A DNA stretch of 64,000 bases from Dictyostelium discoideum. Taxonomy: Eukaryota. The position numbers and the translations under genes were made by a program. Location: assembly GCA_000004695.1 (NCBI GenBank), contig CM000152.2, forward strand, positions 5,504,001-5,568,000, written 5' to 3'. The stretch's first letter is position 1. The number at the start of each line of letters is the position of its first letter. This document shows positions 14,229-26,592 of the stretch, in pieces. The notes beneath the pieces are model-generated. The model saw only the letters and a program-made list of their open reading frames with translations, had not been told where the DNA came from and did not search any database.

Positions 14229-14299
14229 GGGAGATTAGTTAAGTGGTATAATGCTACCTTTGGGTGGTAGCGTCCTGAGTTCGATTCTCGGATCTCCCC
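14229..14299 (+). tRNA. tRNA-Pro (anticodon UGG)
   Basis: Sequence: GGGAGATTAGTTAAGTGGTATAATGCTACCTTTGGGTGGTAGCGTCCTGAGTTCGATTCTCGGATCTCCCC. It folds as a cloverleaf: 7-bp acceptor stem, D-arm, anticodon stem CTACC/GGTAG around loop TTTGGGT (anticodon TGG), 4-nt variable loop, T-arm CTGAG-TTCGATT-CTCGG. The anticodon loop is identical to the eukaryotic tRNA-Pro(UGG) loop. Confidence 0.85.
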
Positions 14300-14343: not shown

Positions 14344-15054
14344 AAAAAATGTGAAACCATCATCAAAAATTCAACAAGATAAATCATCAAACCAATATTT
14401 AATATTCTTTCTTATTAATAATTGGAGATGATATTGATATCCAATTTAATATCAATAATTTAATCAATTTACAAATTATTTATATCAATAGTCAAAAACT
14501 CTGGCTCATTTGGTTTTATTAATAATGGTAAATAACTTTATCTCTGATTTAAAGATAATTAATTAAATCTAATTTAAATTAATTTTACCACAATTAAATC
14601 TGATTTAAATTAATTTTACCACAATTAAATTCAATCTCTTAAGTAGTTTCAATTGATTGAAATATTATTAAAACTATACCTTTGAATTGGGTTTTTATTT
14701 ATTCATTTATTTATTTATCTATTAATTTATTTATTGATAATAAATAGAAAAAAATAAAAGGATAATAATAATAACTGCTTGAATCAAGTTTGATCTTTGG
14801 CTAACGTTTAATGAAGATGAAAACAAAATGATTTATTTTCTACTGAAATGATGTTTTGGGTGGATTAAAAAAAAAAGAAAATAATATTAAAAAAAAAAAA
14901 AAAAAGAAAAATATTTAAAATTTTTGCTAATAAAAAATAATTTTTTTTATTTATTTGCATTATGGTTTCTCGTAATATAAAAAAACAAAAAAAATTGAAT
15001 AATCCATTCAAGAATCGAACATATGATCTCCATATTGTTTTAAATAAATAAGTG

Positions 15055-15125
15055 GGGAGATCCGAGAATCGAACTCAGGACGCTACCACCCAAAGGTAGC
15101 ATTATACCACTTAACTAATCTCCCA
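15055..15125 (-). tRNA. tRNA-Pro (anticodon UGG), second copy, convergent with the first
   Basis: The plus strand is the exact reverse complement of the 14229-14299 tRNA ('GGGGAGATCCGAGAATCGAACTCAGGACGCTACCACCCAAAGGTAGCATTATACCACTTAACTAATCTCCC'). The flanks are also inverted copies. An ex-B-like box lies at 15009-15027 ('CAAGAATCGAACATATGAT'). Confidence 0.85.
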
Positions 15126-21042: not shown

Positions 21043-22594
21043 ATGGTAGCTCAAAGACATTATTATCCAAATTTAAATGATTTACCAAAAGAAATATTAG
21101 TAATTATATTCACACATGTTTTCAATTTATTAAAAAAAGATAAATGTAGAAATCTTAATTCAAAATTTTTTCAAAATGTTTTCATCAGTAAATCAATTGG
21201 TAATTCACTTTTAAATAGTACAGAGTTTTGGATAATATTGATATCTTCTTATATATTTAAAGATATTCTTATTTTTACATCAAATAAATTGGATAGAAAT
21301 GTTTATAATTTAGTTTATTATTGTGCGAGTCAATGTAAAATTAGAGATTATTTTAATAGAAATATTAAAGGTCAAAGACTTCAAACTGTATGTATATGAA
21401 TATAAATAATGAAAAAAAAATAAAATAAAATAAAATAAAATAAAATTTTAATTATATAATAATTATATATAGAAAATTCAAAGTAGTAAATATATGAATT
21501 TAAAAACAGCAGTTTGTTCAATACCATTTGAGAGTAGTTTTATAGTTGGTGGATTGGGTACTAATAAATATCCATTTTTAAGAGCATTCAATTATAAAGG
21601 TGAAGAACAAATCAATTATTTACAAATGAATAGAGTTGGTGCTTATGAAAATAAACCAATTGAATCAATTTCATGTAGGAATAAAGTATTGGCATTTAGT
21701 GTGTTGGGTAGTGATATTATATCAATTTGTAAGACCAATGACTTGAATGAAGATAAATGTGGTTATTTACAATATGAGACTATTAGAACCTCATGCACAG
21801 GTGAAAGAAGTAGGGTAAAGTTAAGTCCGGCCGACGAGAATAAATTAGCTATTGGTGGTAGTGATGGGTCGGTGCATATCTATGATTTGAATCGTATACT
21901 TTCAAACACTGATGACGATGACCAATACGAAGGCAATGAATACATTACAGTCATATCGGAGTGGGGTTTCATGAATAACAAGCTACCAGTTTGGGACTCT
22001 TGTTTCACAAATGATGGTAGAGGTTTATTCGTAGTGGGCGAGTCAGTTCTCAATTGTAGCGATTACTATAAGAATACCGGTTTCGTTAGATACTGGGACA
22101 CCAGACAAGATCCGAATAAAATGGTATGGCAATTAAGGGAAGGTATTGAAGTTGGTGGTATCTCACAATCCCAAGATTCAAATTGTATAGCCTACGTAAT
22201 GAGAGGTGGTTTGGTTAGAGTATTCGATCTACGTTCTCCAAATAATCCACTGGCATTATTCACACCAGAGTCTTCATTAAACTATAACTTTACTTTAAAA
22301 TCTCCATTCAATAGAGACGCTATAGCTTGGATACCCGGTGGATGTGATAATATAGTCTCCTCTTTTTACAATGAAATCAATGTATGGTCAATGGCTGAAG
22401 GTGAAGATACTTGTACCATCATGGTTGATAAATATAGAACCCAAGATAATAATCATAATCAATTAGATATAACTGATGATGGTTTATTACTTTGTTCCAA
22501 TGATACAATTTATTCTCTAAATGATATCAGTGATAAATCAATCATTGATTATTTAGATAATCAAAAAAAAGAAAAAGAAATTGAAAGTGATTAA
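21043..22594 (+). CDS. F-box/WD40-repeat protein, 2 exons: join(21043..21387,21473..22594)
   Basis: Exon 1 reads 'MVAQRHYYPNLNDLPKEILVIIFTHVFNLL...' (F-box-like LPxEIL..IF) and ends at a GTATGT donor at 21388, phase 0. The acceptor is tatatag at 21472. Exon 2 carries WD-repeat-like units: 'IGGSDGSVHIYDL', 'VRYWDTR', 'GGLVRVFDLRS', 'NEINVWSM'. Confidence 0.6.
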
Positions 22595-22719: not shown

Positions 22720-24464
22720 TCAAAATAAATCAGATTTAAAATCAATTTCCCAAGTGTTTGGACCTAATTCCATTTCTTTATCAGTTAATAAACATTGATC
22801 TAATTTTTTAATGATTGTATCTTTATCAAAACCATTTGATTGTAAACCAACGATTGACAATTCAATCTTTCTATCTTGATATTTAAATAATTTAATTTCT
22901 CTTTCAATATTTTCTTTAATTGCTGGATTCCATTCACTTTCTTTCATTGTTGACCAAAATGGACGTTTATTACCAATCATTTCTTTACCTTCAAGCTTTT
23001 TTTAAAAAAAATTATTAATAATTTATTTATTATTATTTATTTATTATTATTTATTTAAATTATTATTTTTAAAATATTTAAATATTTACAATTTCAAAAT
23101 TATATTTATTTTTCATATCATTTGCTAACCAAATTAAACCAGTTGTTAATAAAACACCTTTAAAATTTGTTGTTAAATTTAATTGATTATTTTCATTCTT
23201 TTCAATTGTATCATATAATAATTTATGTAAACGAATTGGATGAAATGGTTTTCTTTGATAATAATTTACAATTGAAATACCAGTTTCAGTATCAGTTTCA
23301 CTCTCTAATTTGTAATCTCTAATGGTTACAACATAGTTAAAGAGTAATTGAAAATTTGGTATCTTACAATAACTAGTTTCAATAACTAATGATGATGATA
23401 TTAAATTTAATAATTTTCCAATAAATTCTAATTTTGATTTTTCAATTTTATCAATTTTATTTAAAATTATAATATTTGAAATTGATATCTATTAAAATAT
23501 ATATATATATATTAGTTTTATATACATGTATATTACTATTTAATAATAGTGATAATAATAAATAATAATAATAATACAAACTTGTTCTAAAATTAAAGTT
23601 GAAACTAATTTATCTGATGATTTAACTAACTCATCAATATCAGCATCTAAATCTTTAAGATCATCAATTTCATCATTTTGATCATCACAACATTCTTTTT
23701 GACAACCTTTACCACATTCTAATTTTGTATCTTTTTGTTTTGTACTACTACTACAAACACCTTTTTCATCACAACATGATGAATGATCATGTTTTTCTAA
23801 TTGTTGTTTTTCAAATTTCTCACTTAATTCTTTTTCATAATTTTTATCATCAATATCTTGATTATCAATTTCTTCACCTTCTTCTTCTTCACCATCTTCT
23901 TCATTTGACATAATTTTCATGATATCTCCAACTTTTTTATCAGATTTTAAATCATCTAATAATGATTCAGCATCTAATATACAAACTACATTTATTAATT
24001 TTACACTCTAAAAATAAAATAAAATTGTTGTGTGTTAATTATAATAATTGTTGTTGTTGTTATTGTTGTTTATTAATTTTATTTTATAAATTGATACATA
24101 CTGAAATGAAATCACCTAAAGAACCTTCCATTTCATCAGCACATGATAAAACTTCTAATAAAAATGTACTTTCAAATGGATGAGAAAAGAAGATAACTTT
24201 ATCAAATTTACCTTTTTTTAATATAAAATCACCAATAAATTCTTCTTCCATAACTGTAACTATTGACCCATTTTGTAATTCGATACATGTATCTTCAACC
24301 AATGTTTTATAACCATTAGATTCATCCAATACTGATTGAGGTAATGTTCCAACTCCATCAAATAAATATGCAACCTTTAATCCTAAATTATCTTTTCTAA
24401 TACTATGATAAAGTGATGCTTTACCAGTATTAATAAATCCAATCACTACAATTGCATCTGTCAT
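22720..24464 (-). CDS. COG0523 / CobW-family (ZNG1/CBWD-like) protein with a degenerate P-loop and no CxCC motif, 4 exons: complement(join(22720..22995,23090..23488,23582..24007,24102..24464))
   Basis: The protein aligns over its whole length to human ZNG1/CBWD1. 'IVVIGFINTGKASLYHSI' matches 'VTIITGYLGAGKTTLLNYI'. 'IELQNGSIVTV' matches 'LELRNGCLCCSV'. 'LKKGKFDKVIFFSHPFES' matches 'MQKKGKFDYILLETTGLADP'. 'VKLINVVCILDAES' matches 'LDGIITIVDSKY'. 'DKLVSTLILEQ|ISISNIIILNKIDKI' matches 'ATRQVALADAILINKTDLV'. The C-terminal 'GLIWLA...RKIELSIVGLQSNGFDKDTIIKKLDQCLL' matches CobW_C. A Cys/His-rich acidic linker is present ('HDHSSCCDEKGVCSS...ECGKGCQKECCDD'). Donors are GTATGT, GTTTGT and GTAAAT. Phases were checked against the track ORFs. 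Confidence 0.75.
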
Positions 24465-24629: not shown

Positions 24630-25766
24630 TTATTTTGTAGATGAAGATTTTGTAAATTTTAAAGCATCTAAAAAATTTGACATTGAAATATTATTTATAT
24701 TAATATCATTTCTTAATGCTAATAAAGCAGTTTCTTTACAAAGATTATTAATATCTGCACCATTGAAACCTTGAGTTAATTCTGATAATTGAATGAAATC
24801 TACACTTTCATCCAATGGCATTGATTTAGTTATTTTTTTGAAAATATCTAAACGTGCTTCTTTATTTGGATTTGGTATTTCAATATGATAATCAAATCTA
24901 CCAGGTCTAAGTATTGATGGATCTAATAAATCAATACGAGTTGTTGCTGCTAATACAATTGATTGATTGCTATTATTATTATTGTTGTTGTTACCACTAC
25001 CACCACCACCATAAATACCATCAATTTCAGTTAAAAGACATGATAATAAACGATCAGATGATTGTTCAGAAGAATCATCAAAACCTCTTAATTTTGCTAA
25101 AACTTCCACTTGATCCAAGAATAAAATACAAGGTGAACTTTCACGTAAAGTTTTGAATAATTTTGAAAGGTTTTTTTCACTTGCTCCAACCACTGGATCA
25201 ATGATATCAGTTGATGAGATTGATATGAAATTTATATTTGGCGATGATGATGCAATTGCACGAGCAATTAAACTTTTACCATTTCCAGGTGGTCCATATA
25301 ATAATACTCCACTTGGCGATTTAATACCTAACCTATCCAATACACTCTTATTCAACATTGGTGTTAATATTGATGATTTGATTTTTTCAATTATTTCATC
25401 TAATCCACCAATTTCATTGAACCCATTACCATTACCATTACCACCACCATCTCCATAACCAATGGTTGGTAATTTATATTGATTTAATATCGAGGGTTTT
25501 ACAAGCTCAAATGCTTTATTAAAATCGAATTTTTCAATTAAATTATAATCATGACAATCATTTCTTTTAATATTCACTAAAATAGCTTCTTTACATAAAC
25601 TATTTAAATCTGAACCTACATAACCATGTGTACATTCTCCCAAATATTCTGATAACTCTTTATAATGTATTTCATTATTTTTAAAATTTGGAAATTCTAA
25701 ATTAAAAAAAAAAATTAGTAAATTTGGTTTTAAAAAAAAAAATATAAAATTTAAAAAAAAAAATAA

Positions 25767-25799
<33 letters not shown>

Positions 25800-26592
25800 T
25801 ACTTTTAAATAATAAATATAAAATTTCTTTTCTATCATTTGGTGAAGGTATTGGTAAATTTAAAACTGAATCAAATTTTCCAATTGAAAAGAACGCTGTA
25901 TCTATAGATTCAATTCTTGATGTTACACCAATTACAAATACTGATCTTTTCTTACTATTATTTTCTAATAATGTTAAAAAATTTGAAACTACTCTTTGTT
26001 CAATATCTATAATTTTAATTTAAAACAATTAGAATTTTATTTATTTATTTATTATTTATTATTTATTATTTACATACACCCTAATGAATCATTTCTAATT
26101 TGTGAAATTGAATCAATCTCTTCAAAAACTAAAACAAATGGTGATTGACTACTTGCTGTATTGAATATACTTTCAATTAATTTTTCAGTATCTCCATCAT
26201 CTTTATTTTTTAAAAAAAAAGAGAGAGAGGGGTTAGTTTGAGGGAAAAATAAAAAAAAAATTAAAAAAAAAGAGTTTTAAAATTAATTTATTTTTACCTT
26301 TTTGAAATAGGTTTGATGAATTTATAATTTTATAATTTATTGATAATTTTGTTAAAATTGATTTTATTAATAATGATTTACCAATTCCTGATCTTCCATT
26401 TATTAGTATATTACATGGGTAGAATTGATCATCATTACCATCATCATTAATAATAATATTTCCAATTATATCCAATCCATCTAAATTAAATAAATCATTA
26501 ATTTTATCAACTATAAATGAAATTGTATTACCCAATCCTCCTACATTTTCATTGATCGATTTCTTTATATCTTCTAATTTTATGTTTTTCAT
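24630..26592 (-). CDS. AAA+ ATPase with two tandem AAA domains and no N-domain (Cdc48/AFG2 superfamily). D2 Walker B is naturally D-Q. 4 exons: complement(join(24630..25696,25803..26006,26078..26200,26298..26592))
   Basis: D1 has Walker A 'ILINGRSGIGKSLL' and Walker B 'FVLVFEEIDSI', then '...RVVSNFLTLLEN...VFVIGVTSRIESID'. D2 has Walker A 'GVLLYGPPGNGKSLIARAIA', Walker B 'CILFLDQVEVL' (Q where catalytic E is expected), then 'VLAATTRIDLLDPSILRPGRFD' and 'QGFNGADINNLCKETALLAL'. Introns use GTAAAA, GTATGT and GTATAC donors. The last intron carries a (TGTA)n run. Coordinates near 25800 may be off by 1. Confidence 0.7.

Follow-up and report, generated by a model that had tools for sequence, protein, structure and literature searches.

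The DDB_G0282213 locus and its conservation

In a stretch of 64,000 nucleotides of the Dictyostelium discoideum genome (assembly GCA_000004695.1, contig CM000152.2, positions 5,504,001 to 5,568,000 of the forward strand; below, the window, from whose first letter all coordinates are counted) we analysed the gene DDB_G0282213, which runs from ATG to TGA on the reverse strand at 22720..24464 and encodes a protein of 487 aa in four exons. Judged from its sequence and that of its relatives, this protein likely represents, in D. discoideum, a pseudo-GTPase branch of ZigA/ZNG1-type COG0523 proteins that is confined to dictyostelids. The spliced translation was identical letter for letter to the deposited AX4 protein (DDB_G0282213, XP_640289.1, Q54SU6), which is annotated only as "hypothetical" or "uncharacterized". 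Both the translation and this identity bear out the four-exon model of an earlier reading of the window, made from the letters without database searches (the sequence-only reading), and the strings on which that reading was built were all present, namely GFINTGKAS (residues 9-17), NGSIVTV (65-71), FSHPFEST (93-100) and HDHSSCCDEKGVCSS...ECGKGCQKECCDD (194-230).

Exon 1 (24102..24464, residues 1-121) encodes the N-terminal half of the G domain with the degenerate G1, CxCC and G3 positions. It is followed by intron 1 (24008..24101, 94 nt, GTATGT...TTTTAG, 15% GC), the position of which, after ...GDFIS, is kept in all dictyostelid orthologues. Exon 2 (23582..24007, residues 122-263) contains the 'VVCILDAE' strand, an acidic Cys-rich insertion and the helix preceding G4, and is separated by intron 2 (23489..23581, 93 nt, position also kept in all orthologues) from exon 3 (23090..23488, residues 264-396), which holds the G4 strand, the interdomain region and the first half of the CobW_C-type domain. 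After intron 3 (22996..23089, 94 nt, 2% GC), exon 4 (22720..22995, residues 397-487 and the stop) completes the C-terminal domain (CTD), and holds YQDRKIELS and CLLTDKEMELGPNTW, both common to ZigA-type proteins. All three introns are 93-94 nt long, of the GT..AG type and in phase 0. The GC content of the window (about 22%) and the short, extremely AT-rich introns are typical of Dictyostelium.

We considered a missed exon hiding the canonical forms of the absent motifs, and rejected it. The stop of the upstream AAA ATPase gene, on the same strand, lies only 165 bp before the ATG at 24464, so that the A/T-rich spacer leaves no space for a further 5' exon. The P-loop and the CxCC and G3 positions all fall inside the uninterrupted exon 1, and independent annotations of seven other dictyostelids have the same N-terminus and the same intron positions.

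Orthologues were found only in dictyostelids in a search of 5.8 billion proteins. An exhaustive hidden Markov model (HMM) search of 1.84 billion cluster representatives returned seven family clusters at E<=2e-96, every named one of them dictyostelid; the next matches were canonical COG0523 proteins, the best being from Balamuthia at 146 bits. The named members span all four dictyostelid groups and come from D. discoideum, D. citrinum, D. dimigraforme, D. firmibasis, D. purpureum, Polysphondylium violaceum, Tieghemostelium lacteum, Cavenderia fasciculata, Heterostelium album, Acytostelium subglobosum and Synstelium polycarpum. At least 12 genomes or strains have an uninterrupted reading frame, and the three phase-0 introns are at identical positions from Heterostelium to Dictyostelium. 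Both flanking genes show synteny within the D. discoideum clade, the AAA-ATPase gene with D. citrinum, D. firmibasis and D. dimigraforme and the WD40-like gene with group-4 species.

The ratio of non-synonymous to synonymous substitution rates (dN/dS), determined pairwise by the Nei-Gojobori method for the four closest species, was 0.11-0.18 overall. By region it was 0.04-0.19 in the degenerate N-terminal part of the G domain, 0.07-0.12 around G4, 0.08-0.16 in the CTD and 0.23-0.31 in the insertion. The DDB_G0282213 family is functional and under purifying selection. Pfam scores below the gathering thresholds and a merely hypothetical annotation might suggest a decaying pseudogene or an annotation artefact, for instance a wrong exon model. 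Such an origin is excluded, save for a very small residual probability, by the low dN/dS, the conserved introns, the intact frames and the synteny, and also by the continuity of the exon with the degenerate N-terminal motifs and by the spacer upstream of it. Two of the models of other species do look like artefacts in part. That of D. purpureum (L004 4000-4014) begins with a 14-nt mini-exon giving MNFE, followed by IFFRQRFYLG, and P0016 (eukprot, 1687 aa) is apparently fused to a downstream gene and is without the 'IILNK' part of the G4 strand.

Regarding the neighbouring genes, the upstream ATPase has two AAA domains and a last exon at 24630-25838 on the reverse strand, with a Gly/Asn homopolymer tract. 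A WD40/beta-propeller-like gene (21494-22594, forward strand) converges on DDB_G0282213 with 125 bp between the stops. Elsewhere in the window, two inverted tRNA-Pro(TGG) genes (14229-14299, forward, and 15054-15124, reverse) face each other at a distance of about 750 bp.

Relationship to canonical COG0523 proteins

On its own, the D. discoideum protein scored 19.7 bits against the Pfam model PF02492 (cobW), just under the cut-off of 20.7, and 17.6 bits against PF07683 (CobW_C), for which the cut-off is 22. When aligned orthologues were searched, cobW was matched by 8/8 (best E=1e-13) and CobW_C by 7/8. The NCBIfam ZigA model NF038288 matched the protein with 91.8 bits (E=4e-26), mainly over residues 238-479, which align to model positions 145-383; this score does not reach the equivalog cut-off of 600 bits, a value that canonical protist and yeast homologues (453 and 408 bits) do not reach either. 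Comparison by hhalign of a profile of 12 family members with a profile of 22 canonical ZigA/ZNG1-type proteins gave a probability of 100% and E=2.4e-61 over 378 columns covering both domains.

The AlphaFold model of the protein has a mean predicted local distance difference test score (pLDDT) of 64, with 75-89 in the G domain and values below 50 in the insertion, which is predicted to be disordered. Entries of E. coli YjiA took the first three places among the Foldseek matches of this model (E=1.6e-7 to 4e-6, both domains), ahead of other SIMIBI NTPases. YjiA (PDB 1NIJ, 4IXM, 4IXN) was the only solved structure matching both model domains (Foldseek E=1.6e-7, probability 1.0), and was also the best PDB sequence match, at an identity of 11-13%. 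With a dictyostelid-only profile this sequence match reached only E=0.3; an earlier match at 1e-9 had hinged on a yeast sequence within the profile. In contrast to DDB_G0282213, YjiA has intact GKT, CxCC and ExxG motifs.

A G3E/CobW-type G-domain fold, a CobW_C-type CTD and the G4 motif NKxD are present in the D. discoideum protein, and GCxCC, the Walker A motif GxxxxGK[ST], the G3 motif ExxG and RxKG are not. On the evidence of these profile and fold comparisons we regard the protein as a true but very divergent COG0523 protein. The CobW_C domain is retained as the sequence-only reading had proposed, according to both the NCBIfam ZigA model and the hhalign alignment over the whole CTD. That reading had also aligned the protein with human ZNG1 across both domains; the two-domain alignment holds against the canonical ZigA/ZNG1-type profile, but the nearest canonical relatives found are ZigA-type proteins and a yeast protein, and not specifically vertebrate ZNG1. 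The nearest canonical relatives found were ZigA-type proteins of protists and bacteria with a PETEEY linker (sequence similarity network cluster 1), together with the yeast homologue P0009, which was the sole non-dictyostelid match in a single-sequence search.

With the ZigA-type proteins (A. baumannii ZigA, NF038288; Balamuthia P0020 among protists) DDB_G0282213 shares the two-domain architecture. They are its best-scoring model family, and Balamuthia provided the best canonical match in the exhaustive search. Both have the CTD signatures RPFHPxRL, WLA, (G/Q)DR(R/K)xE and CLLT(D/E)xE..GP..W, as well as NKxD and the P-loop Gly and Lys. The first of these signatures is represented in D. discoideum by QRKPFHPIRL (residues 341-350, 23228..23257), which corresponds to the RRPFHPxRL motif common to ZigA-type proteins in the hhalign alignment and is invariant in the family. 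Unlike ZigA-type proteins, DDB_G0282213 has no CxCC, G3 ExxG, RxKG or PETEEY, scores far below 600 bits, and has an acidic Cys-rich insertion of about 100 aa within the G domain. Furthermore, the canonical protist relatives P0020, P0021, P0023 and P0024 have C-terminal His-rich tails, for example HVHGEHCNHDHEE repeats, and such a tail is absent from the dictyostelid family.

The domain order is also that of eukaryotic ZNG1 (CBWD; yeast YNR029C, Arabidopsis AT1G26520), a Zn transferase for methionine aminopeptidase 1 (MAP1). In ZNG1 a flexible N-terminal extension docks on the MAP1 zinc finger and the CxCC loop delivers the Zn (PMC10642216). DDB_G0282213 differs in starting only 8 residues before the P-loop, the first Gly being residue 9, so that it has no N-terminal docking extension; the other family members have at most about 15 residues, of basic character, ahead of the first strand. 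With the CxCC lost, the published Zn-transfer mechanism of ZNG1 would be impossible for this protein.

ZNG1 is reported as a near-universal single-copy gene, and the sequence-only reading expected a canonical paralogue elsewhere in the genome. Two are known from the annotation in Table S1 of the Arabidopsis ZNG1/ZNG2 paper (PMC10642216), of which a part was available to us: Q54TS3 (DDB_G0281589, 396 aa) and Q869Q0 (DDB_G0274527, 475 aa), both with PF02492 and PF07683 and with UniProt's GTPase reaction rule. As these two are already there, DDB_G0282213 would be an extra, lineage-specific copy. The other dictyostelids looked up in that part of the table have one to three such proteins each. It also includes the T. 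lacteum, P. violaceum and H. album members of the DDB_G0282213 family, without the GTPase rule; Q54SU6 was not found among its entries. Within the window a tblastn search with three canonical queries matched only DDB_G0282213 and no second COG0523 gene. Dictyostelium was absent from the best 120 matches of each of the searches with the canonical queries P0112 and P0020, all of which were bacterial ZigA or protist proteins, and the names of 10 matches with a Dictyostelium-like composition yielded none either. The AT-rich canonical gene P0112 (L007 719-1998, Logan ERR14790941) lies on a densely packed contig of 4.2 kb and is split into two adjacent open reading frames (719-880 and 886-1998), which could reflect a frameshift or a variant genetic code.

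Loss of the GTPase motifs and order of decay

The motifs were counted in a MAFFT alignment of 397 sequences, consisting of the family and the canonical relatives gathered in the searches. The counts refer to 356 full-length canonical relatives for Walker A, CxCC, G3 and G4, to 377 for RxKG and PETEEY, and to 17 family members for RxKG.

The arginine-finger motif RxKG was present in 377/377 canonical relatives and in 0/17 family members. In D. discoideum its position is occupied by LTTG (residues 377-380, 23138..23149), in which Arg and Lys are lost and Gly is kept. According to Rocchio et al. 2026 (PMC13001444), RxKG, which lies in CTD strand beta2, is the one CTD motif that does not vary across the superfamily. 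Mutants of ZigA and MigC in this motif lose GTPase activity and nucleotide affinity; the Arg acts as arginine finger and is important for GTP/GDP affinity, and both Arg and Lys are essential for GTP hydrolysis (PMC13001444). This loss, which the sequence-only reading did not mention, is the strongest single point for a pseudo-GTPase.

At the canonical NGCxCCT position the protein reads NGSIVTV (residues 65-71, 24252..24272), and all three Zn-binding cysteines are absent. CxCC was found in 351/356 canonical relatives and an intact GCxCC in no family member. The motif has been called "family-defining and invariant", donating three thiolates to the regulatory Zn (PMC13001444), and GCxCC 'characteristic' of COG0523 (PMC10642216). 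The interdomain linker PETEEY, the glutamate of which gates Zn-dependent hydrolysis (PMC13001444), has a similar string in 293/377 sampled canonical relatives; D. discoideum has ESETDTETGIS at this place, and the other members have unrelated sequences, none of them conserved.

A further loss concerns G3, for which [ED]xxG was found in 353/356 canonical relatives and ExxG at the aligned position in no family member. The segment KVIFFSHPFESTF (residues 89-101, 24162..24200) comprises the beta3 strand and the former Walker B/G3 motif with switch II. Because MAFFT did not align the family in the G3 region, we assigned the register with the help of HMMER, hhalign and the predicted secondary structure, and it is ambiguous. 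The canonical Glu falls on E98 with a 5-residue insertion in HMMER, and on F93 with a 5-residue insertion after it in hhalign; the ungapped register of the sequence-only reading (E=F93, G=P96) agrees with the spacing of the predicted strand 89-93 and helix 101-107. There is no glycine anywhere in residues 89-113, so that no register restores ExxG, and the replacement of the 'ETTGLADP' switch by 'FSHPFEST' noted in the sequence-only reading stands as far as the switch-II Gly is concerned.

The P-loop GFINTGKAS (residues 9-17, 24414..24440) has Ala16 (codon GCA) in place of the Walker A Ser/Thr, as compared to GK[ST] in 355/356 canonical relatives, and GFINTGKA was found in all D. discoideum strains. 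The change from GKT to GKA was therefore correctly noted for D. discoideum, but it is late and not a trait of the family, most members of which keep GKS. The P-loop Gly and Lys are conserved in every complete family member. The guanine-specificity motif is retained as LNKIDK (residues 272-277, 23447..23464), in which N273 and K274 are shared by all complete members and only D. purpureum (NKIE) departs from D276. Among the canonical relatives [NT]KxD was found in 302/356, the remaining 54 having mostly the ZigA variant SKxD.

Two sequences in the searches depart from the canonical pattern in their own way. P0208, from a bacterial ZigA-like cluster of 35 sequences, has the Walker A motif GKAT with CxCC, ESTG, NKID, PETEEY and RSKG intact. 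The degenerate ZigA-like protein P0148 (366 aa) has its CxCC-bearing segment deleted and VIKAGALLEP at G3, with GKS, NKTD and RSKG intact; by its sequence it is an independent decay route of COG0523, unlike the dictyostelid family.

Comparison of the family members indicates an order in these losses. No member has RxK, the G3 glycine or the first CxCC cysteine. Remnants of CxCC persist as NGSVCC in T. lacteum and P0016, as SICC in A. subglobosum and as GSCVCC in H. album, where the C-x-CC string is still there but shifted by one residue; C. fasciculata, as well as P. violaceum with Dictyostelium, has neither of the last two cysteines. GKS is kept in seven members (D. purpureum, P. violaceum, its relative P0006, H. 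album, A. subglobosum, T. lacteum and P0016). The hydroxyl was lost later still than the cysteines, in C. fasciculata (GKV) and in the D. discoideum clade, which has GKA except for D. dimigraforme with GKV; the codon path is TCx -> GCA -> GTA. The accepted dictyostelid phylogeny separates groups 1 and 2 from groups 3 and 4, and for this reason the remaining CxCC cysteines and the Walker A serine were probably lost later, each at least twice. Such repeated later losses are what relaxed constraint on Mg-GTP chemistry would predict after a founding loss of the hydrolysis machinery.

All members have thus lost the elements that couple Zn to the GTPase (the RxK finger with its lysine, the switch-II Gly, the first CxCC Cys and PETEEY), which argues against any Zn-gated cycle. 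We consider it likely that the DDB_G0282213 protein cannot perform this cycle and acts non-catalytically. The motif losses, in particular that of RxKG, together with a dN/dS of 0.11-0.18, support the pseudo-GTPase branch beside canonical paralogues that the sequence-only reading had suggested. Purifying selection maintains the two-domain fold and many CTD signature residues, and the conserved P-loop Gly and Lys with N273 and K274 suggest that it still acts on some property related to guanine nucleotide, or on a role of these loops that is structural only.

The retained nucleotide-binding residues could alternatively mean that the protein is a still working, atypical metallochaperone GTPase, in which substitute residues or a partner in trans, for example the RxK of a canonical paralogue, provide hydrolysis and the Cys-rich loop is the cargo site. 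The G1 Gly and Lys and NKxD are conserved across all four dictyostelid groups, most members keep GKS, the otherwise canonical P0208 has GKA as well, and an acidic residue (E98; D in P. violaceum) lies near the former G3. Moreover, a cognate CTD can activate the G domain in trans in ZigA and MigC, but this activation was cognate-specific (PMC13001444). As four catalytic and coupling elements (RxK finger, switch-II Gly, CxCC and PETEEY) are missing together, and as the independent loss of the Walker A hydroxyl on two occasions signals relaxed selection on Mg-GTP chemistry, we consider such a GTPase unlikely.

Going in the other direction, a class-I pseudo-GTPase would bind no nucleotide at all, its G domain being a folded scaffold in which GxxxxGK and NKxD are conserved for structural reasons. 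The absence of the switch-II Gly, the Ala in place of the Mg-coordinating Ser in D. discoideum and the absence of the arginine finger, the Ala mutant of which strongly lowers GTP and GDP affinity in ZigA (PMC13001444), all fit this. NKxD, however, has no known role beyond recognition of the guanine base, yet N273 and K274 are conserved throughout Dictyostelia and D276 in all members but one, which makes a nucleotide-free scaffold slightly less probable still than an atypical GTPase. For the favoured pseudo-GTPase, guanine nucleotide would at most be bound as a static or structural ligand, and in D. discoideum weakly and without Mg.

The Cys-rich insertion and the possible role of the family

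The family-specific insertion (approximately residues 151-247, 23630..23920) is acidic, is predicted to be disordered, contains 7 Cys in D. discoideum and is without equivalent in the canonical profile. Its place is within the G domain, after the 'VVCILDAE' strand and ahead of the helix preceding NKxD, where canonical proteins have about 10-15 residues. The sequence-only reading had described a retained Cys/His-rich linker. The stretch is real, but it is neither interdomain nor retained, being an insertion gained within the G domain. A separate insertion of about 45 aa was found at the same site in Balamuthia P0020, which makes this loop appear to be an insertion hot spot.

In the seven orthologues measured the insertion is 80-148 aa long, and in most members it is built on CC-x(2-4)-G-x-C modules in 1-5 copies or more. 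D. discoideum has CCDEKGVC (residues 199-206) and ECGKGCQKECC (218-228), that is one full module and C-x3-C-x3-CC; D. purpureum has two modules, P. violaceum five, and C. fasciculata, S. polycarpum and P0016 three to five or more, and T. lacteum has (CCDDKSD)n with HDHDHDHD. The Cys density is 5.5-10% within the insert as compared to 0.3-2% elsewhere. In four close species 7/7 insert Cys are invariant, as against 53/90 of the other insert columns, 37/90 (41%) of which vary. The module pattern is matched least well by H. album and A. subglobosum, which still have part of CxCC; this fits a relocation of the metal site and is no proof of it.

These features suggest two options for the role of the protein. 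It may be a thiolate-rich metal-binding or metal-buffering protein, with the insertion loop in place of CxCC, or an adaptor or regulator that engages a client or a canonical paralogue through the conserved CTD surface. We put forward only tentatively that the loop is a new metal-binding element, a thiolate metal buffer or sensor, or alternatively that the CTD surface binds a client or a canonical paralogue. The combined form of this proposal is more speculative and would amount to a new functional class: a thiolate metal buffer or sensor independent of GTP hydrolysis, in which expandable CCxxGxC modules, set in a disordered acidic loop, take the place of CxCC, guanine nucleotide is structural only, and the CTD surface directs the protein to a client or a canonical paralogue.

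Several points weigh against the interpretation as a pseudo-GTPase with a metal-binding loop. GxxxxGK and NKxD are kept family-wide, which argues that some nucleotide-dependent property persists, and 'dead' is perhaps too strong a word for the members with GKS. Ala at Walker A is not in itself proof of inactivity, since P0208 combines GKAT with otherwise intact motifs, and the AlphaFold model is of mediocre quality (overall pLDDT 64). Composition and cysteine conservation suggest that the insertion may bind metal; the Fisher test for the invariance of the insert Cys was marginal (p=0.03), and the group 2 members H. album and A. subglobosum conform only roughly to the CCxxGxC pattern. In addition, no paper in the searched literature mentions DDB_G0282213 or Q54SU6 in its main text.

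The sequences of DDB_G0282213 and its orthologues had already been deposited with automatic annotation, and three orthologues stand without comment in a published network table (PMC10642216). The searched literature contained no main-text mention of DDB_G0274527 or DDB_G0281589, no relevant paper on COG0523 in Dictyostelium, and no paper that links COG0523 with a pseudoGTPase or pseudoenzyme. The concept itself is familiar from p190RhoGAP pG1/pG2, degenerate septins and the AAGAB N-domain, in which a GTPase fold is kept for interaction or scaffolding after motif loss; these have Ras-like (TRAFAC) or septin folds and none is a G3E/SIMIBI metallochaperone. A thiolate-rich metal-binding segment outside the switch region occurs in the G3E GTPase HypB of E. 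coli, as an extra N-terminal CxxCGC site. Unlike DDB_G0282213, HypB has no CTD and remains an active GTPase, and it was only a weak fold match to our model.

A conserved pseudo-GTPase branch of COG0523 would contradict two motifs, CxCC and RxKG, that are currently described as invariant. A whole clade has dropped CxCC, the switch-II Gly and the arginine finger, and D. discoideum also the Mg-binding Ser, while the fold and many CTD surface residues are still selected. The family may therefore serve as a natural test of what is left for the COG0523 scaffold, with its enigmatic C-terminal domain, to do once a GTPase cycle has become impossible. Its most degenerate members, including that of D. 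discoideum, are below the Pfam thresholds, so that surveys of the whole family can overlook them. All of this concerns a single protist lineage, and the function is inferred from sequence. Dictyostelium is amenable to genetics and well established as a model of how cells handle zinc. If the proposed metal-handling role is true, Dictyostelium, which poisons ingested bacteria with zinc, would have a dedicated cytosolic metal-handling protein without counterpart elsewhere.

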